From contig JBIOJO010000013.1 of the NCBI GenBank assembly GCA_044450965.1, positions 1,853 to 65,852 on the forward strand: a stretch of DNA of 64,000 nt, in the 5' to 3' direction. The stretch's first letter is position 1, and every line of letters starts with the position of its first letter. A program made the translations under genes and the position numbers. The DNA is from Elusimicrobiota bacterium (GTDB lineage: Bacteria; Elusimicrobiota; Elusimicrobia; UBA1565; UBA9628). Below the pieces are notes generated by a model, which ran no database searches, was not told where the DNA came from, and saw only the letters and a list, made by a program, of their open reading frames with translations. This document shows, in pieces, positions 3,174 through 60,012 of this stretch.

Positions 3174-4004
3174 TCACGACGCGCGCGGCTTGCGCGCCGC
3201 CAGTTCCAGGAAGTACTTGGTCATGCAACCCGCGGCCCACGCCGTGACCATGAACTGGAGCGCGTTGAAGACCAGCCCCGAGAGCAGGGCCCCGGCGGCA
3301 CCGGCGCCCGCCGCGGCGGAGCCCGCGCGCAGGACGACGTTCACGATCACCGCGGGAATCATCCCGACCAGAGCCGCTGCGATCAGCGCGGCCATGAAGA
3401 CCACGGTCTCGCCGAAGCTCCCGCCGACCAGCTCCCAGCTGCGGGAGAGGCCTTCCCGGGCGCTCAGGTCCTCCACCAAGGTCGCGCAGACGGCCAGGCT
3501 CAGGCGCACGAAGAGGTAAATGCCCGGGATGACGAAGAGAATGAAGCCGAACCCCAGAGCCGCGCCGATCATCGCCGACGCCAGCAGGACGCTTCCCATC
3601 CGGCCCAGCGCCTCGACGAACAGGTCCGTGACCGACGAGGATTCGCCGCGCAGCGCGCGCGCCGCAAGCAGGATGGTCGCGGCGTAGCCGATCAGGCCCA
3701 GCGCCATCGCCACCAGCGCCACGATGGCCAGCATGCCCAGCGCGGGCCAGTTCTGCCCGCTGATGGCGTCCTTGACGGCGTTCTGGTCGGTCAGGCCCGT
3801 GATCAGGCCCACGACGAAGCCCAGGAGCTGGGAGGGAAGCGAGCACAGGGCCCACAGGCCCAGCAGGACTCCCGCGTTGTCCAAAGTCGCGTTGGTGGCG
3901 GCGGAGAATATCCCGCCGAGGCCCGGCATGGCGGCGGACGGCGCGGGTGAGGCGGGGGCTTGTTCCATGACGGCAAGCGTAGCGGGACTGCGCCCGCGCG
4001 TCAA
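3174..4004 (-). CDS. hypothetical Gly/Ala-rich polytopic membrane protein
   Basis: Multiple hydrophobic helices; no recognised motif. Confidence 0.4.
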   Translation of the reverse strand: MTRGRSPATLAVMEQAPASPAPSAAMPGLGGIFSAATNATLDNAGVLLGLWALCSLPSQLLGFVVGLITGLTDQNAVKDAISGQNWPALGMLAIVALVAMALGLIGYAATILLAARALRGESSSVTDLFVEALGRMGSVLLASAMIGAALGFGFILFVIPGIYLFVRLSLAVCATLVEDLSAREGLSRSWELVGGSFGETVVFMAALIAAALVGMIPAVIVNVVLRAGSAAAGAGAAGALLSGLVFNALQFMVTAWAAGCMTKYFLELAARKPRAS

Positions 4005-4010
4005 GGGGTG

Positions 4011-4610
4011 CTAAGGCGCGGAGCGTGCCGCCGTGGGTGAAGCCGGGGCGTAGAGCGCCTTCAGGAAGTTCTTGTCGTCCTGCCATGCGGCCTCGGCGTC
4101 GGCCGCGAAGTCGGAGCGAGTGCGCTCCTGCGCGGCGGCGAACTGGTTCCAGCGCGCCTCGCGCGCGGCGAAGAACTCCTGCATCTTCTGCTTCTGTTGC
4201 GTCTCGAAGGACTTCACCATGGTGCCGCGCAGCCGCTCGTAATCCGCGACCGTGGACGCGTGGTCTTTCGGGTCCAAGGTTTCCAGGGTGGAGAAGAGGT
4301 CCACCGCCTGACGGGCGGTGCGCAGCTCGAAGGTCTTGCGCGCGTCGCGGTCCTTGCCCCAGAACTCCTCCCAAAGCAAGGTCTCGCGGGAGGAAAACTC
4401 CAAGCGCGCGGCGTACGCCTCCTGCAGCTTCTTGGTGCGCTGGGCCAGGTACGCCTCCACGCGCTTCTTGCCGTCCTCCGCGGCGGTCTTGACGGCGGCC
4501 GGGGCCTCGTCGGCGGGGGGCGCCTCGGTTTTCTTCCTCGAGGACGACGGGGCGGCGGCGGCCGCGGACGCCAGGCACAACAGGCAGAGGGAGACGCGCG
4601 TGATATTCAT
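4011..4610 (-). CDS. hypothetical secreted protein (signal peptide, coiled-coil rich)
   Basis: N-terminus MNITRVSLCLLCLASAAAAA is a signal peptide; charged helical remainder. Confidence 0.4.
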   Translation of the reverse strand: MNITRVSLCLLCLASAAAAAPSSSRKKTEAPPADEAPAAVKTAAEDGKKRVEAYLAQRTKKLQEAYAARLEFSSRETLLWEEFWGKDRDARKTFELRTARQAVDLFSTLETLDPKDHASTVADYERLRGTMVKSFETQQKQKMQEFFAAREARWNQFAAAQERTRSDFAADAEAAWQDDKNFLKALYAPASPTAARSAP

Positions 4611-4681
4611 TCCATGACCTCGGTTCACGGTCGGAGTGTAGCCGCGGTCTTCGCGCCTGTCAATGGCGACGGCGGGGAGGC

Positions 4682-5002
4682 CTAGACCGAGAACGACTTG
4701 CCGCAGGAGCAGGAGGAGACGGCCTGCGGGTTCTTCACCACGAAGCCCGAGGCCATCAGGCTTTCCGCGTAGTCCACCACGGAACCGCCGATGAAGAAGT
4801 CGGCCTTCGGGTCCACGACGGTCTTGGCTCCGAACGCCTCGAAGACGGCGTCGTCGGGATTGAGCACGTCGGAGACCTCGAACTCGTAGCTCATGCCGGA
4901 ACAGCCGCCCGCGCCCACCTTCACGCGCAGAACCGGCGCCTGGCCCTTCTTCTCGGCCAGAGCCTTGATCTTCTTGGCGGCGTTTTCGGTCAGAGTGATC
5001 AT
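4682..5002 (-). CDS. Fe-S cluster insertion protein, HesB/IscA/ErpA family
   Basis: 106 aa; Cys in GAGGCSG plus C-terminal SCSCGKSF (C-x-C) signature of A-type carriers. Confidence 0.8.
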   Translation of the reverse strand: MITLTENAAKKIKALAEKKGQAPVLRVKVGAGGCSGMSYEFEVSDVLNPDDAVFEAFGAKTVVDPKADFFIGGSVVDYAESLMASGFVVKNPQAVSSCSCGKSFSV

Positions 5003-6270: not shown

Positions 6271-8454
6271 ATGGCCCACCATCGACACGGAGCCCTTGAG
6301 ATGACCACCACCCAGCCCCAGACGACCTCCCCGTCCTCCGCCCCCATCGCGCCGAAGGTGTCCGAATACTACGGCTGCAACGTGTTCGGCGTGGAGACGA
6401 TGAAGCTGCTTCTGCCGAAGGAGACCTTCCGCAAGGTCCAGGACGCGATCGAGAAAGGCGAGCGCCTCGACATCGACGCCGCCAACGCCGTCGCCTCCGC
6501 GATGAAGACGTGGGCCATCCAGAAGGGCGCCACCCATTATTGCCACTGGTTCCAGCCGCTGACCGGGACCACCGCCGAGAAGCACGACGCGTTCTTCGAC
6601 ATCACCGGCCCCGGCTCGGTTCTCGAGACCTTCACCGGCCAGATGCTGGTGCAGGCCGAGCCCGACGCCTCCTCGTTCCCGTCCGGCGGCCTGCGCGCCA
6701 CGTTCGAGGCCCGCGGCTACACCGCGTGGGACCCGACGTCGCCCGCGTTCATCCTGGAGTCTACGGGTGGGAACACTTTGTGCATCCCGACCTGCTTCGT
6801 GTCCTACACCGGCCACGCGCTGGACACCAAGACCCCGCTGCTGCGCTCTATCGAGGCGCTCAACAACGCGGCGCTGGGCATCCTGGCCTACTTCAAGAGC
6901 GACGCGAAGAAGGTGGTCTCCACCCTCGGCGCGGAGCAGGAGTACTTCCTGATCGACCAGGAGTACTTCGACGCGCGCCCCGACCTGCTCCTGTCGGGCC
7001 GCACCTTGTTCGGCGCGGCGTCCCCGAAGGGCCAGCAGCTCGAGGACCACTACTTCGGCTCCATCAAGGACCGCGTGTTCGCGTACATGACCGACATGGA
7101 GAGCGAGCTGTACAAGCTGGGCGTTCCCCTGAAGACGCGCCACAACGAGGTCGCCCCGCACCAGTTCGAGTGCGCGCCGATCTTCGAGGAGGCGAACGTC
7201 GCCGTCGACCACAACCAGCTGGTCATGGACGTGATGAAGCGCGTCGCGGTGCGCCACGGCCTGGCCGCCCTCACCTACGAGAAGCCCTTCGCGGGCGTCA
7301 ACGGGTCGGGCAAGCACAACAACTGGTCGTTGGGCACGGACACGGGCAAGAACCTGCTGTCTCCCGGCGCCACGCCGCAGGAGAACCTGCAGTTCCTGAT
7401 CATCCTGGTCAGCATCATCAAGGCGGTCCACGAGCACAGCCTGCTGCTGCGCGCGTCCATCGCCTCCTCGGGTAACGACCACCGCCTGGGCGCCAACGAG
7501 GCCCCGCCGGCGATCATGTCGGTGTTCCTGGGCGAGCAGCTGACGAACGTCCTCAACGACCTGGAAAAGGGCGTGACGACCAAGCAGCTGGACCCGATGT
7601 GGATCCCGTTCGGCATCGACAAGATCCCGCCGGTGCTCAAGGACAACACGGACCGCAACCGGACCTCGCCGTTCGCCTTCACGGGCAACAAGTTCGAGTT
7701 CCGCGCGGTCGGCGCGTCCGCCAACAACGCCATTCCGATCACGACGGTCAACACCATCGTGGCGGGCCAGCTGATCGAGACGAAGAAGCTGATCGACGCG
7801 GCCATGAAGGGCGGCAAGCCTTTCAAGGACGCGGCCACCGAGGTGCTGCGCAAGCTCTACAAGGAGTCGAAGGCCGTCTGCTTCGAGGGCAACAACTACT
7901 CCGAGGAGTGGGTGAAGGAGGCCAAGAAGCGCGGCCTGCCCAACGAGAAGACCACGCCCGCGGCGCTGAAGGGCTTCAACCTGAAGAAGTCCGTCGAGCT
8001 GTTCGCGAAGCTGAAGGTCCTCACCGACGAGGAGTCGCACTCCCGCTACCACATCCTGCTGGAGAAGTACGCCAAGGACCTGCACATCGAGGCGAAGCTG
8101 GTGTCCGAGATGGCGACGACCTTGTTCGTCCCGGCGGCGCTCGAGTACCAGAACCAGATCGGCTCGGCCTTGCTCGCGCAGAAGGCCGCGGGCGTGAAGG
8201 CTCCGGCTCAGGCGTCGTTGCTGCGCTCGGTCTCCGACCGGGTGGAGGGCGTCCTCAAGAACGTCGAGGCCCTGGAAGGGGTGCTGTGCGACGCGGAGGC
8301 GGTGGAGGACGTGGAGAAGAAGGCCTTCGCGTACTGCGAGAAGGTGAAGCCGTACTTCGACAAGATCCGGACCGACGTGGACGCGCTGGAGCTGCTGATG
8401 CCGGCGTCCTCCTGGCCCGTGCCGAAGTACCGCGAGATGCTGTTCCTGATGTAA
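6271..8454 (+). CDS. glnN: glutamine synthetase type III
   Basis: 727 aa; N-terminal KVSEYYGCNVFGVETMK...HYCHWFQPLTG and overall length typical of GSIII. Confidence 0.85.
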   Translation: MAHHRHGALEMTTTQPQTTSPSSAPIAPKVSEYYGCNVFGVETMKLLLPKETFRKVQDAIEKGERLDIDAANAVASAMKTWAIQKGATHYCHWFQPLTGTTAEKHDAFFDITGPGSVLETFTGQMLVQAEPDASSFPSGGLRATFEARGYTAWDPTSPAFILESTGGNTLCIPTCFVSYTGHALDTKTPLLRSIEALNNAALGILAYFKSDAKKVVSTLGAEQEYFLIDQEYFDARPDLLLSGRTLFGAASPKGQQLEDHYFGSIKDRVFAYMTDMESELYKLGVPLKTRHNEVAPHQFECAPIFEEANVAVDHNQLVMDVMKRVAVRHGLAALTYEKPFAGVNGSGKHNNWSLGTDTGKNLLSPGATPQENLQFLIILVSIIKAVHEHSLLLRASIASSGNDHRLGANEAPPAIMSVFLGEQLTNVLNDLEKGVTTKQLDPMWIPFGIDKIPPVLKDNTDRNRTSPFAFTGNKFEFRAVGASANNAIPITTVNTIVAGQLIETKKLIDAAMKGGKPFKDAATEVLRKLYKESKAVCFEGNNYSEEWVKEAKKRGLPNEKTTPAALKGFNLKKSVELFAKLKVLTDEESHSRYHILLEKYAKDLHIEAKLVSEMATTLFVPAALEYQNQIGSALLAQKAAGVKAPAQASLLRSVSDRVEGVLKNVEALEGVLCDAEAVEDVEKKAFAYCEKVKPYFDKIRTDVDALELLMPASSWPVPKYREMLFLM

Positions 8455-8467
8455 AAGGAGTTTTATC

Positions 8468-9547
<1,080 letters not shown>

Positions 9548-9551
9548 TATT

Positions 9552-9616
9552 GGGGTCAGGCTTCAACTAATCAACTTATTCGGAAAAATAAGTTGATTGA
9601 GTTGAAGCCTGACACC
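9552..9616. repeat. Long AT-rich near-perfect palindrome (27-28 bp arms, 9-nt loop) with GGTCAGGCTT termini
   Basis: GGGGTCAGGCTTCAACTAATCAACTTATT cggaaaaat AATAAGTTGATTGAGTTGAAGCCTGACACC; arms are complementary with one bulge; related element at 56633..56711. Confidence 0.6.
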
Positions 9617-9631
9617 CTCCCAGGAGATAAC

Positions 9632-10117
9632 ATGACCACCGCCACCGCTACCCCCGAGACCACGCCGATCGCCGTCGGAGCCGTCGCCCCCGATTTCAAG
9701 CTGCCGGATTCGGAGAAGAAGGAGTGGACGCTCTCCGAGTTCAAGGGCAAGAAGCCCGTCGCCCTGTTCTTCTACCCGCTGGACTTCTCCCCGACCTGCT
9801 CCAAGGAGAACGTCTGCTTCTCCCAGGACCTGTCCCGCTACGAGCAGTTCGCGCAGGTGTTCGGCATCTCCGTGGACTCCGTCTGGGCGCACAAGGCCTA
9901 CAAGGCCGCCAACGGCCTGAAGCACACGCTCTTGGCCGACATGCACCGCTCCGCGATCAAGGCCTACGGCCTGTTCCTGCCCGCCGCGAACATCTCCCAG
10001 CGCGCCACCGTCCTGATCAACAAGGACGGCAAGGTGGCGTGGGTGAAGGTCGAGGCCGACATCACCAAGGAGCGCGACTACAAGGAGCTGGAAGCCCAGC
10101 TCGCGAAGCTCGCCTAA
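9632..10117 (+). CDS. peroxiredoxin (AhpC/TSA family, 1-Cys/Prx-type)
   Basis: FKGKKPVALFFYPLDFSPTCSKE peroxidatic Cys motif; AGGAGA RBS. Confidence 0.85.
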   Translation: MTTATATPETTPIAVGAVAPDFKLPDSEKKEWTLSEFKGKKPVALFFYPLDFSPTCSKENVCFSQDLSRYEQFAQVFGISVDSVWAHKAYKAANGLKHTLLADMHRSAIKAYGLFLPAANISQRATVLINKDGKVAWVKVEADITKERDYKELEAQLAKLA

Positions 10118-10142: not shown

Positions 10143-10179
10143 GCGCCCTCGGCCGAAAGGCCGGGGGCGCTTCGTTTTC
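10143..10179 (+). terminator. Rho-independent terminator after prx
   Basis: GCGCCCTCGGCC gaaa GGCCGGGGGCGC stem followed by TTCGTTTTCG. Confidence 0.55.
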
Positions 10180-10236
10180 GGCGATTGCGTTTTGCGGAGT
10201 TCACTGTTGTCAACAACAGTGGAATTGATGGAAACG

Positions 10237-10725
10237 CTATTTGCCCTGACTGATCGTCGGGCCCGGGGGGATTTTTCTCACGAGACCCCCGATGAAATCT
10301 TGGCTACAGGTAGAATCCTCGAAGCTTTCGCGTTTGAGGGTAAGACCGAATTTCATCCAATACACCGCAATCGAATCCTTGGTTGTGCATTGGCCGACTG
10401 GATTGGATCGATAGAAATCCAAGGTCCTATCCAATTTTTTGAGTTCTTCAGCGGTTATCCAAAGAGAAGATTGTCGATCAGTCCCGGAAATATGGATTTT
10501 ACGGAGATCAGCTCCGCTCATTTTGAGCGTATAGGATTGATCGTTGAAGCATCCTTTAGAATGGAAAATAATTTTTACCGTTTCATTCGTGGCCAGTTCG
10601 GCGACTGAGCGGCGGGCGTTCTTTGAATTCTGTGCGGAGGTCGTGATCGCTGTGCAGAAAAGGATAAGTCCGGAAAACCAAAGTGCCTTCTTGATCACCG
10701 CATGTACACGCTTAAGCGGTGCCAT
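10237..10725 (-). CDS. hypothetical secreted protein in a low-GC islet
   Basis: Signal-peptide-like N-terminus (MAPLKRVHAVIKKALWFSGLILFCTAITTSAQ); local GC far below the window average. Confidence 0.4.
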   Translation of the reverse strand: MAPLKRVHAVIKKALWFSGLILFCTAITTSAQNSKNARRSVAELATNETVKIIFHSKGCFNDQSYTLKMSGADLRKIHISGTDRQSSLWITAEELKKLDRTLDFYRSNPVGQCTTKDSIAVYWMKFGLTLKRESFEDSTCSQDFIGGLVRKIPPGPTISQGK

Positions 10726-10898
10726 TTCGTTTTGGAGTCTTCGGCTTCCATGCACAGGCGCGCCGCTTCCTTGAGCCGTTTGTCCAACTCAGCGAGGGTG
10801 CGGGCTTGCGTGTGGCAACCCTTCAAGGCGGGAACCGTGCCGACGAAAAGTCCGTCTTCGTCTCGTTCCACGACGACGGGAAACCGGTACTTCCTCAT
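10695..10898 (-). CDS. hicB: HicB-like antitoxin domain protein (UPF0150), orphan
   Basis: MRKYRFPVVVERDEDGLFVGTVPALKGCHTQARTLAE matches the HicB N-terminal fold; no HicA partner found. Confidence 0.45.
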   Translation of the reverse strand: MRKYRFPVVVERDEDGLFVGTVPALKGCHTQARTLAELDKRLKEAARLCMEAEDSKTKWHRLSVYMR

Positions 10899-11017
10899 GC
10901 CGATAGCATAGCAGGGGCTTCCGGGCGTCGCAAGGCGGGGTGCCATTTCCAGATATCTCCACTCAGTATCCGCGGCAGGGGGTGGAAAAGTTCCCATTCA
11001 GGGCCTATGCTTCAGGC

Positions 11018-11503
11018 ATGAAACCGAATTTCAAACGGCTCCTCTTCGCGGCGGTCTTCGTTTCCGGGTGCGCCTCCGCCCCGCATAAGCCCTTCGTCCA
11101 GCTTCCGCCGGCCCCGAACACGGCCGCCGTGTATTTCTTCCGCCCGTCGGAGATGACCGGCATGCTGCTCAAGCCGACTCTCTCCGCGAACGGCGCGGCG
11201 CTGGGCAAGCTCGGCAACGAGACCTGCGCCGTCGCGAACCTGCCGCCGGGTTCCATCGCGCTGCGCTCCCAGTGGGCGGGCATCCCGGGTTCGTCCCGCG
11301 ACGACTCCGCGACCGTGAACGCCGAGGCGGGGAAGAACTATTTCGTCCGCGTGCGCTATCACACCGCGAAGTCCCACGCGGTGGCTCCGGCGGGAGTTCT
11401 CTCGTTCGAGGACCGGACGGGCCTGGAGGAGACGACCGAGGCCGAGGCCATGCCCAACCTGGAACGCATGGGCGCCTGCGCGACGCTGGCCCCGGCGAAG
11501 TAG
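11018..11503 (+). CDS. hypothetical lipoprotein
   Basis: Lipobox LLFAAVFVSGCAS; beta-rich remainder. Confidence 0.45.
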   Translation: MKPNFKRLLFAAVFVSGCASAPHKPFVQLPPAPNTAAVYFFRPSEMTGMLLKPTLSANGAALGKLGNETCAVANLPPGSIALRSQWAGIPGSSRDDSATVNAEAGKNYFVRVRYHTAKSHAVAPAGVLSFEDRTGLEETTEAEAMPNLERMGACATLAPAK

Positions 11504-11506
11504 AGA

Positions 11507-12034
11507 CTAGCGCCGGATCAACTGGCCCAGCAGGCAGAGCTGCGCCAGCCCCACCAGCAGGCACGCCAGCCGGAACAGGCGCTGCTTGCGCGCGGCCACG
11601 TGCGCGCTCTCCGCGATCTGGCCGATGATGTCCTCGTAGTAGGCCGTCGCCGTGATCCCGCCGCCCAGGTACTTGTCGAAGCGGAAGATCAGGTCGCCGT
11701 GCGTGTATTTGGCCAGGTCGTCGGGGGAGATGAAGTTGTCGGCCGTTCCGGGCCGGTGCCGGGGGGGCTCCAGGAACGCCAGCCACTTGGGCAGGCGGTT
11801 CAGCGGCGCGAAGGCGAACAGCCCCAGCGGCAAGGCGATCGTCAGGGCCGTCGTCGCCAACGAACCGAGCGGGTCCGAGGCCGCCGTGATCTTCAGGAAC
11901 GCCAACTCGGCCGCCGCGAAGACGGTGAGCGCCCCGACCTTCGTCTCCGTCCACTCCACCGCGTGGCGCATGCTGTCCAGGATGATCCACAGACGCCGTT
12001 CCGGCTCCGGCGTCAGGTGGGCGGAGACGCTCAT
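11507..12034 (-). CDS. hypothetical membrane protein (3 TM) co-oriented immediately downstream of the desaturase
   Basis: Two adjacent TM helices near the N-terminus and one at the C-terminus; start lies 2 nt after the desaturase stop. Confidence 0.4.
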   Translation of the reverse strand: MSVSAHLTPEPERRLWIILDSMRHAVEWTETKVGALTVFAAAELAFLKITAASDPLGSLATTALTIALPLGLFAFAPLNRLPKWLAFLEPPRHRPGTADNFISPDDLAKYTHGDLIFRFDKYLGGGITATAYYEDIIGQIAESAHVAARKQRLFRLACLLVGLAQLCLLGQLIRR

Positions 12035-12035
12035 C

Positions 12036-13070
12036 CTAGGCGGCGCTGCACGACGGCGCGCAGCGGACCGGGTGCGCGTTGTCCACGGCGTCGAAACCCA
12101 CCAGCTTGCCGGTCTTCTCGTCCCACAGGGCGAGGGACATGCACGACAGGCTGTTGAACAAGGTCAGCTTGGTGACCTTCTGGAAGACCGGGTTCTCCTT
12201 CATGCACCGCTCCAGGTTGTAGTTCGGGATGCGGCTGTTGAGGTGGTGGATGTGGTGGAAGCCGATGTTGCCGCTGACCCACTGGAGGATCCGGGGCAGC
12301 TCGTAGTACGAGCAGCCCTTCAGGCTGGCCTCGGTCAGGTCCCAGTTCTTGTCGGGACTCCAGTAGGTGCCTTCGAACTGATGTTGGATGTAGAACAGCC
12401 AGACGCCGGCGGACGCCGTGATCAGCACCAAGGGGAGCTGCGCCCTCAGGAACGGCCACAGGCCCACCGTGTACGACGCGATGAGAAGGATGGAGGCCAA
12501 AACCACGTCGGTGAGCAGAATGCTCAGCCGCTCCTGCTTCCAGTCCGGCGGCACGATGACCGGGATCCGGTGGTTGATGACGAAGTGGTACGCCGGACCG
12601 ATGATGAACATCACCGGCGCGGAGCGGTACACCCGGTACTTCCACTGCCCCCAGCCCGAGAGCTTGTCGTACTCCTCGATGGTCAAGGTGTTGATGTCGC
12701 CGTACCCGCGCCGCTCCAGGTTGCCCGAGGTGGCGTGGTGAATGGCGTGCGTCTGCCGCCAGTAGCGGTACGGCGTCAAGGTGAACACCCCAAGCACCGC
12801 GCCGACCATGTCGTTGGCGCGCTGGGACTTGAAGAAGGAGCCGTGGCCGCAGTCGTGCTGGATGATGAACAGGCGCATCATGAAGGCCGCGCCGGGAAAG
12901 GCGAGCAGCAGGCTCAGCCAGCCGTGACCGCGGCTGTGCAGGAAGTGCATCAGCACGACGATCGCGAGATAAGGGAGCGCCGTGTTCGCCAGTTGGCCGA
13001 TGCTGGCGAGGAGATTGGGTTCCTTATATTTAGCAAGCAACACGTTGAGCGAGGCGATGTCTTTAATCAT
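12036..13070 (-). CDS. membrane fatty acid desaturase (acyl-lipid desaturase, DesA-like)
   Basis: Three histidine boxes: HDCGHGS, HAIHHATSGN, FHHIHH; multiple TM helices. Confidence 0.85.
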   Translation of the reverse strand: MIKDIASLNVLLAKYKEPNLLASIGQLANTALPYLAIVVLMHFLHSRGHGWLSLLLAFPGAAFMMRLFIIQHDCGHGSFFKSQRANDMVGAVLGVFTLTPYRYWRQTHAIHHATSGNLERRGYGDINTLTIEEYDKLSGWGQWKYRVYRSAPVMFIIGPAYHFVINHRIPVIVPPDWKQERLSILLTDVVLASILLIASYTVGLWPFLRAQLPLVLITASAGVWLFYIQHQFEGTYWSPDKNWDLTEASLKGCSYYELPRILQWVSGNIGFHHIHHLNSRIPNYNLERCMKENPVFQKVTKLTLFNSLSCMSLALWDEKTGKLVGFDAVDNAHPVRCAPSCSAA

Positions 13071-13276: not shown

Positions 13277-15550
13277 ATGAGATTGCTGCGGAGAGCGCTC
13301 GCGGTCCTTCTGTCCTACGCGATCGGAGTCCAGCCCGCCGTCGCGCAGTTTAATGTTGGGCGCGTCGCGGCGCCCTCCGTTTCCGGCGCGGGCTCGGCCG
13401 CCGCGGCGGTCAATTCCGGCGCGTCGGTCCAATCCGTCCAACTGACGACGTTGGGCGTCGTTCCCAATCTTTCCGTTGCCGCTTCCCTGAGCGCGCCGTC
13501 GGTCATGGCCGCCCCGTCCGTTTTCGCCGTGCCGGTCGCGGCCGTGCTTCCCGTGTCCGCCGTTTCCGCCGTCGCCGTCGCTCCCGCCTTGGCCCTCCGC
13601 GCCGTCCCCGCCGCCCCGACGGCGACGCAGCCCTCGAAGCCGGAAAAGATTTCCGTCACGCAGCATGTCGCGCAAATCTCCGTCGCAGCCCAAAACGCCG
13701 TACATGACATCGGCCGCGCCTCCGGCGCGGAATCCCGCGAGAAGGCCGACGCCCAGTTCACCGCGCTCCTTGAAAGCCGCCGCATCGCCGCGTCGGACGG
13801 GATCGAGACGCGCGTCCCGTCGGCGCTGTCCCGCGCGGACGCGCCGCGCGCCTATCTCGACGCGCCGACGCCCGCGGCGCCGAGCGGAGGGGAAAAAGCC
13901 GGCGTCCCCGCGCCGAAGGCCCCGAAGACCGGGATCTTCACCGTGTTCCGCGATCCGGTCCGCAACAGCGCGTTCTGGCGCTACGTCTCCGGCTACGCGA
14001 TCTTCCTGTTCGGCTACGAGATGTACGTGGTCGGCCTGCCCTACCTGATCTCGTCGATGACCACGAACTCCCTCAAGGAGCACAAGGACGCCCGCGTCGG
14101 AAACGACGAGGCGGTCAAGGAGCTGATCCGCACCAACCGCTCCCTGTCGCGCATCGCCCACTGGTTCGCCCAGGGCGTCAGCTACATCGCGATTCCTCTT
14201 TTCACCCGCAATCAGGAGACGGACGGTCCGAAGAAGTGGCTGGTGAAGTCCATGCTGATACGCGCCGGCGTTCTGGCCGCGGTTCCGGTCGTGTTCTTCG
14301 CCACGGGCGTGCTGGGACTGCACGCGGCCATGTGGGTGCTGTTCGGCTTGATCGCCGCGCAGGCGTTCTTCCAGGGAATCTCCGTGACGGCCGAGGGCGC
14401 CGCGACCACCCGCCTGCTGGGCGACAAGAGCGTCACCACCGACGAGCGCACCAAGGCCAACTCGATTCTGACCGTGCTGGCGGCCGTCATCGCCATCATC
14501 GGCCCGCTGGTCGCTGGGCAGATCGCCATGATCGGCCCCGTGATGGGCAAGAGCGGCGTCGGCGGCGCGGTCATCTACGGCATCTACGCCGGCGCCATCG
14601 CCGTGACCGGCCTGATCTACGCCACCATCAAGATGTTCGGCGGTCAGAGCGAGTCCACCAAGCTGGCCATCGCCCGCGGCGAGAAGCCGGACGCGGCCGC
14701 GCCGAAGACCCTCAAGGGCGTGATGAAGGAGCTGTGGACCTCCATCAAGGACGGCACCCGGATCGTTTTCAAGGACCGCCTTTTGCGCACCATGCTGCTG
14801 ATGTCCATGGTCAGCTCCCTGTTCTCCGACCCGCTGGTGTTCAACGTGCTGCCCGAATACATCGAGGGCCTGGTCGCCAAGAGCCCCGGCTCCGTCGGCG
14901 CCATCATGGGCATTCCCGGAATCGGCTGGTTCCTGAAGACTTTGACCGCCACGCCGATGGGCAACTTCGCGCTGATGATGGTCATGGCCAGCGTGGGCAG
15001 CATCGTGGCCACCTTGCTGATGAAGCCGCTGACCAAGCTGTTCCACAAATTCGGCTTCAAGACCGAGGAAGGCCTCACCGTCCCGTTCTACTTCCTGGCG
15101 GCCTTGGAAGCGCCCCTCTTCTTCCTGATGATCAACACGCCCACCATGCTGGGCGCCATCGCGCTGTACGGCCTGCAGTCCTTGGTCACCGGCTTCATCG
15201 GCATCGCCATCCAGGGTCTCTACCAGAAGAACCTGGGCAACCAGAAGGACGGCGACGTGAACAAGATCCTGGCGGCCGACTCCCTGCTGGGCATCGGCGC
15301 CGCCATCGTGTCCACCTTCGCCTACGGCTTCCTGCTCAAGAACATCCCCATCGCCACGTCCTTGATGATCGCCGCCATCGCCACCGGCGTGGTCGCCTTG
15401 ATCCGCCTGGCGGCGCCGTTCCTGTCGTTCACGAAGGATCAGCGCAAGCCGCCGTCCGATCCGCCGGCGCCCAAGGTGCCGTCCGCCAACGCCCTGCCGT
15501 CCACGGGCGTCCACAACGGCGCGAACTCCGTCCAATCCACGAACCTCTGA
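13277..15550 (+). CDS. MFS-type transporter with an N-terminal signal peptide and a roughly 200-aa Ala/Pro/Ser/Val-rich low-complexity extension
   Basis: 12-14 predicted TM helices after aa ~220 with an MFS-like loop arrangement; start chosen at the MRLLRRALAVLLSYA signal-like Met rather than the track start. Confidence 0.45.
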   Translation: MRLLRRALAVLLSYAIGVQPAVAQFNVGRVAAPSVSGAGSAAAAVNSGASVQSVQLTTLGVVPNLSVAASLSAPSVMAAPSVFAVPVAAVLPVSAVSAVAVAPALALRAVPAAPTATQPSKPEKISVTQHVAQISVAAQNAVHDIGRASGAESREKADAQFTALLESRRIAASDGIETRVPSALSRADAPRAYLDAPTPAAPSGGEKAGVPAPKAPKTGIFTVFRDPVRNSAFWRYVSGYAIFLFGYEMYVVGLPYLISSMTTNSLKEHKDARVGNDEAVKELIRTNRSLSRIAHWFAQGVSYIAIPLFTRNQETDGPKKWLVKSMLIRAGVLAAVPVVFFATGVLGLHAAMWVLFGLIAAQAFFQGISVTAEGAATTRLLGDKSVTTDERTKANSILTVLAAVIAIIGPLVAGQIAMIGPVMGKSGVGGAVIYGIYAGAIAVTGLIYATIKMFGGQSESTKLAIARGEKPDAAAPKTLKGVMKELWTSIKDGTRIVFKDRLLRTMLLMSMVSSLFSDPLVFNVLPEYIEGLVAKSPGSVGAIMGIPGIGWFLKTLTATPMGNFALMMVMASVGSIVATLLMKPLTKLFHKFGFKTEEGLTVPFYFLAALEAPLFFLMINTPTMLGAIALYGLQSLVTGFIGIAIQGLYQKNLGNQKDGDVNKILAADSLLGIGAAIVSTFAYGFLLKNIPIATSLMIAAIATGVVALIRLAAPFLSFTKDQRKPPSDPPAPKVPSANALPSTGVHNGANSVQSTNL

Positions 15551-34667: not shown

Positions 34668-34714
34668 GGGAGTCTCCGTAGAAAAACGAACGGAAGAAAA
34701 AACGACGAAATCAT

Positions 34715-34747
34715 CCGGTGGGAGGCCCCTGAGGGGCCTCCCACCGG
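34715..34747 (-). terminator. Perfect 15-bp-stem hairpin between nrdA and nrdB (terminator/attenuator)
   Basis: CCGGTGGGAGGCCCC tga GGGGCCTCCCACCGG followed on the minus strand by a T-rich tract (TTTCGTCGTTTTTTCTT). Confidence 0.55.
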
Positions 34748-34759
34748 ATACGGGTTATC

Positions 34760-40984: not shown

Positions 40985-41057
40985 TTTCTTATTGATAAGC
41001 GATTTCAACAAGGAAAAGATAGCACACCTCTTATTGAAATACAATATCAATAAGAAA

Positions 41058-41094
41058 ACGGGCAAAAAGAAGGCCCGCCTCGCGGCGGGCCTTC
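41058..41094 (-). terminator. Rho-independent terminator after the dsbA-like gene
   Basis: GAAGGCCCGCC tcgc GGCGGGCCTTC followed on the minus strand by TTTTTGCCCGTTTTCTT. Confidence 0.6.
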
Positions 41095-41106
41095 GGCATG
41101 GGCGCT

Positions 41107-55000: not shown

Positions 55001-55132
55001 GCCATCGGTCGCGGGAGATTCCCGATCCGGCCAATGGACGGCGAGGGAGGTCACTGCTCCTGGTGCGACTTCCCGACCTTGTGCCGCAAATCGCACGGCC
55101 CTTCGCGGGCCCGAGCCGCCGTCGCCGCCTAG
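52031..55132 (+). CDS. addB: AddB-type helicase-nuclease subunit (inactive helicase fold + PD-(D/E)XK nuclease with an Fe-S cluster)
   Basis: C-terminal VVDYKT nuclease motif and Cys cluster ...HCSWCDFPTLC; no Walker A at the N-terminus. Confidence 0.7.
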   Translation: MSGTLKVFHGPFEALEDALAARVAELRPKEGDAPLLIVAPSRAMAERLERLLSVEKGLPLLGVHFHTFHSLAAAIVEEGGFPDGVLISDPLFHDAVVDQVLDEAPSLGIAKELRPKALAAAVRSSLRDLVDAGVDPALLAENFGDELLREDADERARFIALLSLLAVYEKKLAKLGVLPPSALVRRAALLAPESKWLGRFREVFYYGFYDLTGLQADAFEAVTSSRPSRLYFPYRKGHPAFRFADAFFDVKLAGREPVDVSRPGGPGTALGPALDALFDPAGLPSKVDSEMIRVVSASGARDEAWASAKEAYRLIEDGVPCGEIAVIARQLEPYRAALTEAFAAEGLPLDLSAGEPILRHPLAKAALDLLTLRRRDFPARAVEDLAASPYFESADPGRVALWRKLIAALGVRAGWLQWRGKLEPRARGPVELYPHRVREGLAGFAVPAADVAALWDFLAGVRDGLGGPAAPWSKRVEEARALLAAHLGFPKDPSPAEADARRAVADALTELEAFDRLGAAASWEDFLDAFEAKLTRATRSVGAGEGGVRALDAMDARGHRFRATIVMGLKEKLFPRQIQEDPILREGARAALRHPAGYWIGRKAAGHEEERLLFYLTVASARERLTLIYPRSDENGRADVPSTYLRELCRAAGLPAPGEDDAWRVPRPPAERLRATPAARRTPAEAVLLCALEGGDPPAALDAGGALAEGFRLAAALNARGGPGPHDGQVPPPAAALAAWRKSGLSPTALDEYAKCPFKFFASRVLGLSDREEGTERGELSSAARGQVYHGVLERFYRTLPEAVWVGRGDAPGHLNAVLAEAFAENDWRVLGLYPLLWEAARLEMSAHLHAFVAWDLARLRAGSFRPRLFEAKLKGEPEGGAPAGIPWRGIVDRVDADEAGVRFRVVDYKTRKSASWSKNLSRKIAEGESHQIPFYAVLAAGALGNGWEFAGGELLFLEADEDAHASGLTSEDWAKAREPFLRTLAVKVEAIGRGRFPIRPMDGEGGHCSWCDFPTLCRKSHGPSRARAAVAA

Positions 55133-56625
55133 GCGGCGGCCAAGGTGAAGGAGAAGCGCGAGCCCTTCCCGGGCCGGCTGTCCAGCTCCAGCTCGCTGCC
55201 GTGCGCTTCGAGGATCATCCGCGAGAGCGCCAAGCCGACGCCGAAGCCCTTCGCCGTGCGCTTGCCCTGCTCGGTGCGGTAGTAGCCGGAAAAGATCTTC
55301 TCGCGGTCCTCGGGCGCGATGCCGATGCCCGTGTCCTTCACGAAAACCTCCACGCGTCCGTCGGCGCGCCGCAGCGCGCCCAAGCTCACCGCGCCGTTTT
55401 CCGGCGTGTACTTGAACGCGTTCGTCAGCAGGTTCGCCACGACCAGCGGGAGCGCGTCCGGATCGCCGGAAACCGCGGGCAGGCCCGGCGCCACGTCCAG
55501 CGTGACGGTCAGCTTCTTGCGCCGGGCGATCACCTGCAGGCGCTCGAGAGACTGGCTCAGCAGGGGGGCCAGCTCCACGCGCTGGGACTCCAGGTTGAAT
55601 TTCCCCGACTCCAACCGGCCCAGGTTCAGCAGGTTGGTGGCCATGGCCGACAGGGCGCTGACGTTGGCGTCCAGCATCTCGTGCCAGGGAGCGTCGGCGG
55701 GGGACTTGTCGTTCTCCATCAGCAGGACGTGCGCGGTATGGATGACGGTGAGGGCGTTGTTGAACTCGTGGCTGACGCCGGAGACCAACTGCGACTTCAG
55801 CCGGTTGGTCTCGCGCTCGCGCTCGAACTGGGCGTTGAGCTTGCCGGCCATGGCCCGCATCGTCTCAATAAGGTCGTGAAGCTCCCGAGGGGCGTCCCGG
55901 TCGTCCTGAAGAGTCCAAATCTCTCCCAGTTTCCACGCGCCCGCCTGCGCGCGCAGGCGCAGGAGCGGATTGACCAAGATGCGCGCGACCATGGCCGACA
56001 GCGTCAGCGCGCCGAAGACGCCGAAGATCAGGATGAATCCGAACGTGGCGAAGGCGGCGGATCGGGCGGCGCGGCGCTGGGCGTCCATGCGCTGGAAGCC
56101 GATGCGGCCGATGCGCGCCATCCTCTCCACCAGGGAGTCCACGTCGTCCTTCATCAGCGCCTTCTCGACGGCCTCGGCGCGGTTCATGTTCCCGCGCTGC
56201 GCCCGCTCCAAAATCTTGTTCTCCGATTCGATGTATTGATCGAACTGCTCCCCGATTTGGCTCCATTCCTTGAGCTCCAGCGGGTTCTTCAGGCGGGAGG
56301 CGAGCCGGCGATGGTTGGCGCGGAACTCCGCGATCGCGGCGCGGCGGCGGGCCAGCCAGTCGGGCTTGTGCGTCAGCAGGTAATCCGCCGCGTCGATGTC
56401 GATCTTGTGCACCAGGGCGCGCTGGGCCGGCAGATCGGCCAGGAAAGAGAGCTCCTCGGCGAACCCGGCCTCCAGGCGGTCCTCCTCGCGGCTGCTGGTC
56501 AGGTAGGCCACGGTGGAGAGCCCCGTGAAAACGCATAGGGCGGTGGCCAGCAAAGCGGTCAGGCGCGCGCGGAGGGTCCAGGTCTTCACGACGGTATACT
56601 GCGATTTAAGCCCTTGTCCCCGCAA
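55129..56625 (-). CDS. sensor histidine kinase (2 TM, HAMP, HisKA, HATPase_c), no cognate regulator nearby
   Basis: H-box SHEFNNALTVI, N/G1/G2 boxes LLTNAFKYT, DTGIGI, GFGVGLALS; TTG start per track. Confidence 0.8.
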   Translation of the reverse strand: MRGQGLKSQYTVVKTWTLRARLTALLATALCVFTGLSTVAYLTSSREEDRLEAGFAEELSFLADLPAQRALVHKIDIDAADYLLTHKPDWLARRRAAIAEFRANHRRLASRLKNPLELKEWSQIGEQFDQYIESENKILERAQRGNMNRAEAVEKALMKDDVDSLVERMARIGRIGFQRMDAQRRAARSAAFATFGFILIFGVFGALTLSAMVARILVNPLLRLRAQAGAWKLGEIWTLQDDRDAPRELHDLIETMRAMAGKLNAQFERERETNRLKSQLVSGVSHEFNNALTVIHTAHVLLMENDKSPADAPWHEMLDANVSALSAMATNLLNLGRLESGKFNLESQRVELAPLLSQSLERLQVIARRKKLTVTLDVAPGLPAVSGDPDALPLVVANLLTNAFKYTPENGAVSLGALRRADGRVEVFVKDTGIGIAPEDREKIFSGYYRTEQGKRTAKGFGVGLALSRMILEAHGSELELDSRPGKGSRFSFTLAAA

Positions 56626-56632
56626 CGTCGAG

Positions 56633-56711
56633 GCGGGGTCAGGCTTTTACTTATTTCACTTATTCATGCGCGACGTTTCAATAAGTGAAATAAGTAAAAG
56701 CCTGACCCCGC
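56633..56711. repeat. Perfect 32-bp inverted repeat with a 15-nt loop, AT-rich interior, GGTCAGGCTT termini
   Basis: GCGGGGTCAGGCTTTTACTTATTTCACTTATT catgcgcgacgtttc AATAAGTGAAATAAGTAAAAGCCTGACCCCGC; lies in the divergent HK/addA promoter region. Confidence 0.65.
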
Positions 56712-56730: not shown

Positions 56731-59700
56731 ATGGACGCCCCCGACCGCGAGCACCGCGACCGCGCGCGCTTCCGGCTCGACGCGAACGTGGTGGTCGAGG
56801 CGGGGGCGGGCACGGGCAAGACCACCTTGCTCACCGACCGCATCTTGTTCCTGGTGCTGGGCTGGGACAAGCCGGCGCCGGTGAGCGTGGACCGCGTCGT
56901 GGCGCTGACCTTCACCGAGAAGGCCGCGGGCGAGATCAAGCTGCGCCTCTCCGACCGCCTGGCCGAGCTGGCGGGGCGGCTGGCCGGCGGCGCGCTGGGC
57001 GGCGCGGCGGCCGAGCGCGCCGACCGGACCTTGGACGAATTGCGCGGCCAGTTCGGCAAGCAGGACGCGGAGCTGCTGGCGCGCGCGCGCGCGGCGCTGG
57101 AGGATCTGGACAAAGCTCCGATCGGCACGATCCATTCCTTCTGCGCCCAGATACTGCGTCTTCATCCCGTCGAGGCGGGCGTGGACCCCGGCTTCCGCGT
57201 GGACGAGGGCACGGCGTTCGAGGAGCTGTTCGCGTCCGAATGGGCGGCCTGGCTGGACGACGAGTTGGGCGAGCGGCCGCCGCGCCGCGGGGCGTGGCTG
57301 GAACTGCTGGCCGTCGCGGAGCTGGACGAGCTGGAGGCGCTGGCGCGGGAGCTGTGCGCGGAGAAGCTGGAACTGGGCGGCCAGGGCGGACCGGATCCCG
57401 CGGCCGCCTCGGCGCTGCGCGCGCTCGCGAAAAGCGCGGCGAACCTCCCGGAGGGGCGTCCCAAGCCGCGCGGCAAGATCCTGGAGGCGCTGGCCGAGAT
57501 CGGCGCGCGCCTGGAAGCCGCCGCGGAGGCCGCGGAGTCGGACGCGCCCGCGCTGGACGCCGCGGAGCCTCCCGCGCCGCGCGACGCGAAGTGGCCGTCC
57601 GCTTGGGAGGAGGATCCCGCGGCGGAGGCTTTGTACGAGCGCCTGTCCGCGGTGGCCGCGTCGGCCAGCCCGCGCGGGGAGGCCGCCGCACGCCGCGCGG
57701 CGCGCCTGCTGGTCCCGTTCGCCGAGCGCTTCCGCCGCGAATTCGCGCGCCGGGGCTGGGTCTCCTTCGATGGGCTTCTTCGCCGCGCGCGCGACCTGGT
57801 CCGGGACCGGCCGCGGGTGCGAGAAGAGGTCAAGCGCCGCTTCGCCGCGCTCCTGATCGACGAGTTCCAGGACACCGACCCTCTGCAGGGCGAGCTCCTG
57901 ATGTATCTGGCCGAGAAGCCGGAAGGCGGCGCCAAGCGCTGGCGGGACGTGATCCCCGCGCCGGGCCGCGTGTTCGTGGTCGGCGATCCGAAGCAGTCCA
58001 TCTACCGATTCCGCGGGGCGGACATCGCGGCCTACGAGGGCTTCGTGGACCGTCTGCGCGAAACGGGGGCGCTGGTCTGCGACCTGACCGCGAACTTCCG
58101 CTCGGTGCCGGGAGTGGTGGGGCCGGTGAACCGGGCGTTCGAAAAGGCGATGGTCGCCGAGCCGGGCGCGCAGCCTCCGTACAAGGCCATCCTGGCCGCG
58201 CGCGCGCCCGGCGCGCCGGAGCCGGCGGTGCGCGTCGTGGCGGTGACCGATCCCTCGGGCGTGTCCGACGCGGCCGACGTCCAGCGCGCCGAGGCGAGTT
58301 GGATATCCCGTTGGATTTCCGAGAATGCGCGCGTTCCGGGAGCCTCGAAGGAAGGCCGGCGTCCGTTGAAGGACATCGCCGTGCTGCTGCGTTCGTCCAC
58401 GTCTCTGCCGTCTTTGTTGGACGCTTTCAAGAGGGCGGGAATTCCGTACGCGGTCGAGATCGAGCGGTTCTTCTACGAAGCGCCCGAAGTGTCCGACTTT
58501 TTGAATCTTCTGCGGGCGCTGGACGACGACGGCGATCGCATCGCGATCGCCGGGCTGCTCCGTTCGCCGTTGGCCGCGTTGACCGATGGAAGTCTTCTGG
58601 CGCTATCCCAGGAAGACGGGCTCACGTACCGCCGCGATCCGGCGAGAGGCGTCATTCCGGAGGGGGAGCGTCGCCGCGCGGCGGACCTGTTCGAGGCCCT
58701 TCGGTCTCTGCGCGCGCGCGTCGGCCGCGAGCCTCTCGGCGACCTGGTCGGCGCCGCGCTGGAAAAAACCCGCTTGGTCGAATTGTCCGCGCGCGCGTAT
58801 CACGGCCAGCAGACGGTTTCGAATCTGCTGAAGCTCCGGCGCCTGGCGGTGGAGGCGTCCGACGGACGGGGCGCGACATTGAAGGAATTCGCCGCCCACG
58901 TCCGCGACGCCGCGCGCGAGTCCCGCCGCGAGGGCGAAAGCCCGCTGGCCGACGAGAAGCTGGAAGCGGTGCGCGTGATGACCATGCACAAATCGAAAGG
59001 GCTGGAATTTCCGGTGGTCATCGCGGCGAACCTTTCCGGCAAGCCGGGCGGGGGAAGCGAGAAGCCGGTCTCCCGCCTGGACCCGGCGACCGGCCGCGCC
59101 GCCCTGCGCCTGGGAAGCCTGGCCTCCGCCGCGATGGCGCTGGCCGACGCGCGGGAGAAGGAGATGGAGCGCCGGGAGTCCGTGCGCCTGCTCTACGTGG
59201 CGATGACCCGCGCCCGGGAAATCCTCTATCTGGTCGGACGGGAGAAAGCGGCGAGCGGCTCCCTGGCCTCGCATCTGGACGGGGCGGGATCCTGGCCCGG
59301 CGAGGGACGCGAGGGCCATCTGCCCGCGGCCTTCATCGACGCCGCCCAGACCCCGGAGCCCGCTTCCGCCGCGCCCGCCGCCGCGTCGTCCGATCCGAAG
59401 GACGTCGCGGCCGTCGTCGCCGCGTGGGAGCGGCGCGCCGTTTTGAGGAAGTCCGCGGAGACGCCGCGCGCGCGCGCCGCGACCGCGTATTTGCGCGAAC
59501 TGCCGAAGCGGCCGTCGTCCGCGGAAGAAGGCGGCGGATCTCCGGCCGGGGCGGAGGTGGGGCAGCTCTGCCACCGGGTCCTGCAAGAATGGGACTTCCG
59601 CGCGGGCGGCGACCTCAAGAAGGAGACGAAAAGCGCGCGGGAGCTTTTGGAGCGGCGCGCGCCGGGCCCCCGTTGGCCGGAGGCGGAAGCCGAAGCGGTG

Positions 59701-60012
59701 AAAATCCTGGAGACGTTCGTCGCGTCCAAGGCCGCGAAGTCCTTGGCCATGGCCGAGATTCTGGGCCGGGAGACGCCGTTCGCGTACGCCGACGGAGACA
59801 CGGTGGTGCGCGGCGCCGCGGACCTGATCTATCGCGACGGCAAGACGGTGGTCGTCGCGGACTTCAAGAGCGAGAAGGTGGACGAGAAATCCGCCGCGGC
59901 GATTCGCGCCCGCTACGCGGAGCAGGGCCGCGCCTACTGCGAGGCGGTGGAGCGGGCCTGGGGCGTCCCGGCGGAGTTCCGGGTGCTGTTCCTGCGCCGT
60001 CCGGACCTCTGA
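56731..60012 (+). CDS. addA: AddA-type helicase-nuclease subunit (UvrD-like helicase + C-terminal PD-(D/E)XK nuclease)
   Basis: Walker A EAGAGTGKTT, UvrD motifs; C-terminal AADLIYRDGKTVVVADFKSEK nuclease motif; TATAAT 8 nt upstream of the ATG. Confidence 0.8.
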   Translation: MDAPDREHRDRARFRLDANVVVEAGAGTGKTTLLTDRILFLVLGWDKPAPVSVDRVVALTFTEKAAGEIKLRLSDRLAELAGRLAGGALGGAAAERADRTLDELRGQFGKQDAELLARARAALEDLDKAPIGTIHSFCAQILRLHPVEAGVDPGFRVDEGTAFEELFASEWAAWLDDELGERPPRRGAWLELLAVAELDELEALARELCAEKLELGGQGGPDPAAASALRALAKSAANLPEGRPKPRGKILEALAEIGARLEAAAEAAESDAPALDAAEPPAPRDAKWPSAWEEDPAAEALYERLSAVAASASPRGEAAARRAARLLVPFAERFRREFARRGWVSFDGLLRRARDLVRDRPRVREEVKRRFAALLIDEFQDTDPLQGELLMYLAEKPEGGAKRWRDVIPAPGRVFVVGDPKQSIYRFRGADIAAYEGFVDRLRETGALVCDLTANFRSVPGVVGPVNRAFEKAMVAEPGAQPPYKAILAARAPGAPEPAVRVVAVTDPSGVSDAADVQRAEASWISRWISENARVPGASKEGRRPLKDIAVLLRSSTSLPSLLDAFKRAGIPYAVEIERFFYEAPEVSDFLNLLRALDDDGDRIAIAGLLRSPLAALTDGSLLALSQEDGLTYRRDPARGVIPEGERRRAADLFEALRSLRARVGREPLGDLVGAALEKTRLVELSARAYHGQQTVSNLLKLRRLAVEASDGRGATLKEFAAHVRDAARESRREGESPLADEKLEAVRVMTMHKSKGLEFPVVIAANLSGKPGGGSEKPVSRLDPATGRAALRLGSLASAAMALADAREKEMERRESVRLLYVAMTRAREILYLVGREKAASGSLASHLDGAGSWPGEGREGHLPAAFIDAAQTPEPASAAPAAASSDPKDVAAVVAAWERRAVLRKSAETPRARAATAYLRELPKRPSSAEEGGGSPAGAEVGQLCHRVLQEWDFRAGGDLKKETKSARELLERRAPGPRWPEAEAEAVKILETFVASKAAKSLAMAEILGRETPFAYADGDTVVRGAADLIYRDGKTVVVADFKSEKVDEKSAAAIRARYAEQGRAYCEAVERAWGVPAEFRVLFLRRPDL

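Follow-up and report, generated by a model that had tools for sequence, protein, structure and literature searches.

A long AT-rich palindrome separates apbC from prx (positions 9552..9616) in a 64,000-nucleotide stretch of DNA from an Elusimicrobiota bacterium (GenBank assembly GCA_044450965.1, contig JBIOJO010000013.1, positions 1,853 to 65,852), hereafter termed the window. Sequence comparison indicates, with a probability of about 0.8, that this palindrome is a small, non-coding mobile-element remnant composed of two head-to-head copies of a terminal inverted repeat (TIR) of the TIRYT/TIRtron class. In the sections of Di Nocera et al. 2013 (PMC3733652) that deal with them, TIRYTs are RAYT-like genes flanked by long TIRs within units termed TIRtrons; the TIRs of TIRtrons share the motif GGGGWSAS, and moderately abundant TIR families occur as singles, dimers, and groups. 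The palindrome is assigned to this class because the outer end of its arms, GGGGTCAG, fits the motif. A preliminary description of the window had suggested an element resembling a repetitive extragenic palindrome (REP) or a miniature inverted-repeat transposable element (MITE), a suggestion that is supported here and made specific as a TIRYT-type TIR dimer.

Two dimers of the repeat in the window

At the apbC–prx spacer, the element (copy 1; 9552..9616, no strand assigned) is a hairpin-forming miniature element in which two terminal repeats meet head to head as a complete dimer; it is recognized by its fold and by an arm profile from other genomes that matches both of its arms. The near-perfect AT-rich palindrome of the preliminary description is borne out by the sequence, the fold, and the gene calls, but its dimensions are not those first given (arms of 27-28 bp and a 9-nt loop): the hairpin has 29 base pairs and a 6-nt loop. 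The left arm, GGGGTCAGGCTTCAACTAATCAACTTATT (9552-9580), opens with an outer conserved 12-mer, GGGGTCAGGCTT (9552..9563, plus strand), that agrees with the TIRYT motif, and continues into an AT-rich, lineage-specific interior (9564..9580, plus strand) formed by the tandem units CAACTAAT and CAACTTATT of about 8 nt each. The apical loop, CGGAAA (9581..9586, no strand assigned), differs in the closest relative, L001. The right arm, AATAAGTTGATTGAGTTGAAGCCTGACACC(C) (9587..9616/7, minus strand), consists of AATAAGTTGATTGAGTTG plus AAGCCTGACACC and departs from the left arm by two single-base irregularities, one mismatch and one extra base. As RNA, copy 1 has a folding energy of -43.7 kcal/mol (z -8.8), which none of 200 shuffled sequences equaled; as single-stranded DNA, the value is -27.6 kcal/mol (z -9.3). 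Self-complementarity is a property of the dimer that is missing in a single arm, and the half element of relative L127 folds at chance level (z -2.2).

Copy 2 (56635..56709, no strand assigned), identified by the same fold and arm-profile evidence, is likewise a complete dimer, in which GGGGTCAGGCTT TTACTTAT TTCACTTATT is followed by a 15-nt loop and then the mirror image. Its core spans 75 nt, and palindromy extends to 56630-56714 with 35-nt arms that are 97% complementary. The RNA folding energy is -63 kcal/mol (z -14.3). Shared termini and a shared loop junction had been proposed for the two palindromes, and both are real: the copies have in common the ends GGGGTCAGGCTT...AAGCCTGAC and, where arm meets loop, ACTTATT. 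The window contains AATAAGT seven times against an expectation of 0.63, and six of these seven occurrences fall inside the two elements. Of the four arms that the window holds, three open with GGGGTCAG; in the remaining one, on the right of copy 1, the reverse complement is GGTGTCAG, with one mismatch to GGGGWSAS. Since a profile built exclusively from arms of other genomes picks out these four arms and no other sequence in the window, the count of two copies is right for the window; beyond it, the family is far larger than a two-copy family. The GC content of the window is 62-72% over most of its length, and both elements are among its few AT-rich islands.

Neither copy is flanked by a target-site duplication. 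The flanks are TAATATT and CTCCCAG at copy 1 and GAGGC and GCTTC at copy 2, with no direct repeat in either case, an absence that accords with Y1 transposition.

Association of the repeat with a Y1 transposase gene

The link between the repeat and a gene comes from other genomes. The Atribacterota locus L113 has a short palindrome (1603-1677) whose arms are found again, at a spacing of about 1 kb, on either side of an open reading frame (ORF) of 300 amino acids (3957-4859) with matches to Y1_Tnp (4.6e-16) and to Bac_DnaA_C (2.7e-5), a DnaA-like helix-turn-helix (HTH) domain. This ORF scores 72.7 bits against the NCBIfam model REP_Tyr_transpos (REP-associated tyrosine transposase), under the cut-off of 80, and 23 bits against transpos_IS200, for which the cut-off is 55. 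Its protein has hundreds of homologues, many labeled RayT, whose alignment shows no variation at the HUH histidines H66 and H68 or at the catalytic tyrosine Y125, and from its sequence the TIRYT protein looks active. The C-terminal part matches DnaA domain IV (2z4r, 7.7e-5), and Bac_DnaA_C is found above its cut-off in GC-rich TIRYT members. According to the sections of Quentin et al. 2018 (PMC6006769) that classify these enzymes, 20 of 26 TIRYTs belong to TnpA-Y1 subclass 2.1, the subclass with a Bac_DnaA_C/HTH tail.

The association is general among 80 metagenomic loci encoding homologues, scored over 200 nt on either side of the gene where the locus had room. GTCAGGC is present within 200 nt upstream of the gene at 52 of 64 loci and GCCTGAC within 200 nt downstream at 50 of 68; both are found at 36 of 54, compared with a chance rate of about 1-2% for a 7-mer in such stretches. 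Moreover, the positions are stereotyped, at about 50-70 nt ahead of the start codon and about 11-25 nt past the end of the match, and the repeats that flank TIRYT genes begin with the same 12-mer, GGGGTCAGGCTT. Across all DNA collected, the distance from GGTCAGGC to GCCTGACC is bimodal, with 121 cases at 45-99 nt and 54 cases at 800-1299 nt. Gene-flanking arms are also present at TIRYT loci of 51-61% GC, where the TIRs are still AT-rich. A search seeded with GC-rich TIRYTs returned 7148 relatives, and none of the 120 that were listed carries an Elusimicrobiota label.

Several loci in this collection show the repeat in other arrangements. L158 holds two complete TIRtron copies (3946-4899 and 7736-8689) 3.8 kb apart. 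Left-plus-right-arm derivatives of 180-400 nt occur in L182 (5727-5905) and L174 (5269-5672), and intermediates between the gene-bearing element and the short palindromes therefore exist. An identical TIRYT protein, P0242, is encoded in 92 blocks of the collection, nearly always on contigs shorter than 5 kb. The left flank of the P0242 TIRtron (L214-L223) is constant at every locus, and two right-flank variants part 7 nt beyond the right TIR, a pattern that fits assembly breaks and rearrangements at repeats.

Distribution in other genomes

The genome-wide palindrome search proposed in the preliminary description was extended to one genome for each of 185,579 species, and its outcome favors a repeat family. 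The pattern GGTCAGGCTT-N30-60-AAGCCTGAC is found at at least 120 loci. By the arithmetic used here, chance alone would yield about 67 one-sided matches across all these genomes, and only about 8 of the 120 loci resemble chance matches. Some 36 loci share the design of the window elements, in which (G)GGGTCAGGCTT leads into a palindromic, AT-rich interior and a loop, after which come the mirror image and AAGCCTGACCC(C), or in short GGGGTCAGGCTT, the interior, and AAGCCTGACCCC. These loci span about nine phyla: Thermodesulfobacteriota, Bacillota, Planctomycetota, Chloroflexota, Elusimicrobiota, Atribacterota, SAR324, Gammaproteobacteria, and WWE3. Their hosts include Desulfobacterales, Syntrophales, Clostridia and other Bacillota, Planctomycetaceae, Dehalococcoidia, Elusimicrobia, Atribacterota, SAR324, a gammaproteobacterial metagenome-assembled genome (MAG), and WWE3, and two of them, Desulfofustis glycolicus DSM 9705 and a Desulfotomaculum sp., have been isolated in culture. 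Copies within one genome are alike, as in the six near-identical 71-nt copies on two small contigs of one Planctomycetaceae MAG, whereas across lineages only the outer 12-mer is held in common, and the termini are found next to unrelated genes.

The repeat is thus dispersed and intergenic. The window has two dimers, close relatives have dimers and single arms, and other genomes have multi-copy sets and tandem groups. Tandem right arms with a 92-nt period are present in L111 (about 4340-4540), and nested or adjacent arms in L047 (2316-2351) and L051 (1735-1766 and 6718-6800); elements therefore tend to cluster or to insert side by side. The repeat is not a phage feature, since only one match was found in 2.9 million viral contigs. 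A literature search with the 10-mers of the repeat returned unrelated primer sequences only.

About 75 other loci, nearly all in Planctomycetota (within L003-L122; for example, L006 3009-3059), are REP doublets with a GTAG tag, of the form GTAG-GTCAGGCT-TTCC-AGCCTGAC. The TIRYT repeat end and the recognition sites of these Planctomycetota REPs may have a common origin or may be alike by chance. Minimal hairpins of the form GGGGTCAGGCT-TT-AGCCTGACCCC were seen in the Actinomycetes MAGs L016 and L098.

Turnover at the orthologous apbC–prx spacer

The spacer of copy 1 was compared with the orthologous spacer in relatives retrieved through ApbC and Prx; an exact look-up with the ApbC of the window itself found no record. 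This comparison, which had also been proposed in the preliminary description, again favors a repeat family: full, variant, half, and empty states are all present. L001, which encodes an identical Prx protein, has a full element with perfect arms and a different apex. In L123 (ApbC 97% identical), the same flanks and outer stem, including the derived GACACC, enclose an unrelated, perfectly palindromic interior, TTGATTCTTTTGAT, and L124-126 (ApbC 94%) have yet a third interior. Only the left arm is present in L127-129 (ApbC 91%), and the complete 3.8-Mb genome of L130 (ApbC 87%) has a 29-nt spacer from which the element is absent. Because the GACACC variant of the right arm is common to the window, L001, L002, and L123, the outer stem can be regarded as orthologous among them. 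As a repeat would lead one to expect, the contigs of L001 and L002 break off within the element. Throughout, prx and its ribosome-binding site (RBS) are kept, and these varied, half, and absent states therefore point to an insertion rather than to a prx operator or a terminator. On the sequences compared, the site behaves like one of insertion, turnover, and decay.

Two further features lie near this site. A segment that includes the apbC stop codon, AAGCTTAGAAG, is tandemly duplicated just left of the element in L124 (8864-8886) and also in L125 and L126. Beyond prx, the slot between its terminator and a fatty-acid desaturase gene is a strain-variable hotspot with different genes in each relative (window 10178-12036; L123 11706-13488; L124 9503 onward; L127 4366-5589; L001 658-1888). 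In the window, the slot holds a DUF2846 gene and a 175-aa ORF, and the corresponding 175-aa gene of L001 has a PycTM match.

A bipartite arm

Among non-redundant arms, the sequence that follows the 12-mer has an 8-nt periodicity. Self-match at offset 8 is 0.50, compared with 0.33 in shuffled sequences, and 38 of 53 arms match themselves best at an offset of 8 or 9, where 24% would be expected (p = 4e-13). Examples of unit pairs are CACAAGTT-CACAAAAT and GCACAATT-GCACATT and, in the window, CAACTAAT-CAACTTATT for copy 1 and TTACTTAT-TTCACTTATT for copy 2. Because this internal periodicity lies behind a shared 12-mer, the arm can be described as a universal 12-mer plus two lineage-specific units.

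The sections of PMC6006769 on the motif compare GGGGWSAS, and GGGGWSAS only, with the DnaA box and report no resemblance (Quentin et al. 2018). No mention of a 12-mer extension of the conserved end or of tandem 8-nt units was found in the relevant sections of PMC3733652 and PMC6006769. Both this architecture and the swapping of interiors at a single site appear to be new. The sequence pattern suggests a division of labor in which the conserved Y1 core and the DnaA-like HTH would read different parts of the arm. A sigma-54 promoter-like match in some arms (TGGC...TTG) was judged to be a coincidence.

Comparison with known systems

The closest likeness is to the TIRs of TIRtrons. The outer motif GGGGWSAS, here GGGGTCAG, is shared, the arms stand at stereotyped distances around genes with Y1_Tnp and Bac_DnaA_C domains, and the repeats are intergenic, occur as singles, dimers, and groups, and have no GTAG tag. 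The present family differs in its new host, a GC-rich Elusimicrobiota-like genome in which a cognate gene was not found in the window and about 110 kb of related DNA. It also differs in having as its conserved end the 12-mer GGGGTCAGGCTT, common to many phyla, and in the two tandem 8-nt lineage-specific units of each arm.

The REPIN/RAYT system, work on which is associated with Bertels and Rainey in 2011 and Nunvar et al. in 2010, reportedly pairs hairpin-forming REP doublets with a single-copy Y1 transposase. Here, too, two inverted copies make a long hairpin, a homologous HUH/Y1 gene is flanked by the same repeats, singlets resemble decayed doublets, and target-site duplications are absent. 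Unlike REPINs, however, the present elements have no GTAG, a single arm forms no palindrome, the protein carries an additional DnaA-like HTH, and the interior is AT-rich and bipartite. The arms begin with GGGG, lack a GTAG or CGTC tag, and as single units form no imperfect palindrome of 20-40 nt, which sets them apart from a classical REP or REPIN. The Planctomycetota GTAG doublets resemble the window elements in the GTCAGGCT stem and the doublet layout, but they are built from GTAG-tagged 22-nt hairpins that have no AT-rich interior.

Y1 HUH enzymes of the IS200/IS605 group act on folded single-stranded DNA and insert without duplicating the target. The TIRYT protein belongs to the same catalytic family, although IS200/IS605 elements and their miniature derivatives have short subterminal hairpins at their ends in place of the long terminal inverted repeats seen here. 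Classical bacterial MITEs (Correia/NEMIS, RUP, ERIC, and Nezha) are mobilized by DDE transposases and carry target-site duplications. They resemble the window elements in being short, non-coding, TIR-bounded, intergenic, often co-transcribed, and hairpin-forming; however, the duplication is absent at both window copies, and a MITE of the DDE type was rejected.

Proposed mechanism and points against it

If the palindrome is a TIRYT-type TIR dimer, its mobility can be outlined by analogy with IS200/IS605 and REP/RAYT elements. When the DNA is single-stranded, the element would fold into its hairpin, and a TIRYT encoded elsewhere in the genome would copy or move the folded dimer in trans, without target-site duplication. 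Such a cognate transposase has to be assumed for this organism, as neither the window nor about 110 kb of related Elusimicrobiota sequence includes a TIRYT gene. Recognition of the outer 12-mer, with cleavage at or beside it, would fall to the conserved Y1 catalytic core, and the inner AT-rich 8-nt units would serve as binding sites for the DnaA-like HTH domain. Because copy 1 sits in a probable apbC–prx co-transcript, it would also place a highly stable RNA hairpin immediately upstream of the prx RBS; should this hairpin affect mRNA stability or the apbC:prx ratio, it would do so as a side effect of insertion, and the element would not owe its existence to that effect.

Several observations weigh against this account. 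A tblastn search with 81 TIRYT proteins found no match in the window and the related Elusimicrobiota DNA. The short palindromes of three Atribacterota cases pair one left arm with another left arm and are not left-plus-right fusions; a plain internal deletion therefore does not explain their origin. The analogy with single-stranded DNA hairpins is valid for dimers only, since a single arm, unlike a classical REP, is not self-complementary. The unrelated interiors at one site in the window, L123, and L124 misfit a simple scheme of a single insertion followed by decay. In L123, moreover, two direct single-arm copies, AATAAGT[A/C]AATAAAGTAAAAGCCTGACCCCTCC (11706-11738 and 13452-13485), bracket a strain-specific gene of 566 amino acids, which suggests that arms can also take part in recombination. 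Finally, the literature search found no experimental demonstration of TIRYT activity, and mention of the class only in PMC3733652 and PMC6006769.

Alternative explanations

A tentative variant, unlikely as it stands, would account for some of these observations by treating the arm as a two-part recognition module of which the interior is the exchanged unit. The Y1 core would read the 12-mer as a cleavage or target site, and the HTH would read the 8-nt units much as DnaA reads 9-mers, which would give each TIRYT lineage a private address. Cleavage at the boundary between 12-mer and interior would allow interiors, and occasionally whole genes, to be swapped at a resident site. This proposal would explain the swapped interiors at apbC–prx, the left/left dimers, and the arm-bracketed gene of L123.

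It is improbable that the hairpin is instead a host device acting at the RNA level, either as a terminator or attenuator without a U-tract or as a stabilizer of the 3ʹ end of the apbC mRNA that sets the apbC:prx ratio, its mobile origin being secondary. The upstream gene, apbC/mrp (8468..9547, plus strand; Pfam ParA/NUBPL, 4.4e-102, and FeS_assembly_P), encodes an Fe-S carrier ATPase whose homologues carry the names Mrp/NBP35 in Elusimicrobiota and assign the window to that phylum. The position of so stable a hairpin 4 nt past its stop codon would suit such a device, as would the occupancy of the site down to 91% ApbC identity and the compensatory changes that restore palindromy in L001 and L123. 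REPs, too, are reported in sections of PMC3733652 to lie mostly downstream of ORFs and to act as RNA elements. Copy 2, however, is downstream of no gene. It lies between divergent genes for a sensor histidine kinase (55129..56625, minus strand; Pfam HATPase_c, HisKA, and CHASE3; coordinates of the longest ORF, although translation may really begin at the GTG at 56589) and an AddA/UvrD-type helicase-nuclease (56731..60012, plus strand; Pfam UvrD-helicase, UvrD_C, and PDDEXK_1). Terminator and promoter scans found no T-tract, no terminator call, and no sigma-70-like promoter call at either window copy, while prx has a terminator of the ordinary kind at 10160-10182. Furthermore, the right arm is lost in L127-129 and the whole element is absent in L130, with no visible change in the genes. 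An intrinsic (Rho-independent) terminator in the strict sense was rejected on the same scans and the divergent setting of copy 2, in line with the preliminary description, which had noted the missing U-tract. Just right of copy 2, a perfect TATAAT (56719-56724) stands 7 nt before the ATG of the addA-like gene; the scan found no -35 partner.

A role of the arms as recombination sites that bound gene cassettes, as attC sites do in integrons, with the palindrome as an empty or fused junction, is more doubtful still. The direct arm copies around the 566-aa gene of L123 are placed exactly at the synteny break with the window, and this gene could have been captured or recombined at the arms. A single arm stands at the edge of a three-gene insertion in L124, interiors have been exchanged at one orthologous site with the outer 12-mers retained, and the flank variants of the P0242 TIRtron diverge just beyond its right TIR. 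Nevertheless, L123 is the one clear case: the slot genes of the other relatives differ, and their junctions are without arms. The strong statistical association of the arms is with the Y1 transposase gene. Integron attC itself was rejected, as the ends GGGGTCAGG / CCTGACCCC contain no RYYYAAC/GTTRRRY cores and no integrase gene was found among the neighbors scanned. Tn3-type inverted repeats, which like attC were considered on account of the GGGG ends and the cassette-like spacing, were rejected in the absence of both the inward TAAG motif and a 5-bp duplication.

The large operator or RNA structure controlling prx that the preliminary description had offered as an option, that is, a hairpin or a palindrome-bound protein dedicated to the transcription or translation of this peroxiredoxin gene (9632..10117, plus strand; Pfam AhpC-TSA, 3.1e-30, and translation), is hardly tenable: although the hairpin ends 5 nt ahead of the prx Shine-Dalgarno sequence, would appear in the mRNA of an apbC–prx operon if there is one, and could in principle bind a dimeric regulator, the same termini recur in unrelated contexts in about nine phyla and between the kinase and helicase genes of the window, the interior is not conserved among orthologous spacers, which in some relatives hold half an element or none while prx and its RBS persist, and the RBS (AGGAG, 9622-9626) is unpaired in the minimum-energy fold of copy 1. 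Rfam 15 gave nothing at gathering thresholds in the window, and its sub-threshold matches were only to generic hairpin models of miRNA precursors.

Other features of the window

A third AT-rich inverted repeat (40981-41061) has outer arms TTTTCTTATTGATA / TATCAATAAGAAAA and an inner pair TTTCAAcAAG / CTTATTGAAA. It lies directly upstream of the apbE start (40984, minus strand) and beside the intrinsic terminator of a dsbA-like gene (about 41062-41095). It has CTTATT in common with the two elements but is not counted in the family because it lacks the conserved GGGGTCAGGC ends and is unmatched by the arm profile; it could be a promoter or operator of apbE or a decayed interior. A perfect palindrome of 18+18 nt, ATCCGGTGGGAGGCCCCT / AGGGGCCTCCCACCGGAT, at 34713-34749 is apparently intergenic and may be a bidirectional terminator. 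The first 2000 positions of the window have 53% GC, compared with about 66% elsewhere, and contain ORFs at 563-1468 and 11-463 (minus strand) without a Pfam match; this segment may be recently acquired DNA.

Implications

For the annotation of this genome, a possible prx regulator is replaced by a repeat-element call, and the identity of the repeat explains assembly breaks at such sites in the clade. TIRYT elements are almost unstudied, and a single terminal 12-mer of this class spans lineages from Atribacterota to Elusimicrobiota. The tandem 8-nt module of the arm could be the recognition target of the DnaA-like domain, and the naturally occurring states of one site (full, swapped, half, and empty) provide both substrates and predictions for the biochemistry of the class. 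If the element does alter the processing of apbC–prx mRNA, it would be another selfish hairpin that changes the expression of an operon, in this case one concerned with Fe-S cluster delivery and peroxide defense.

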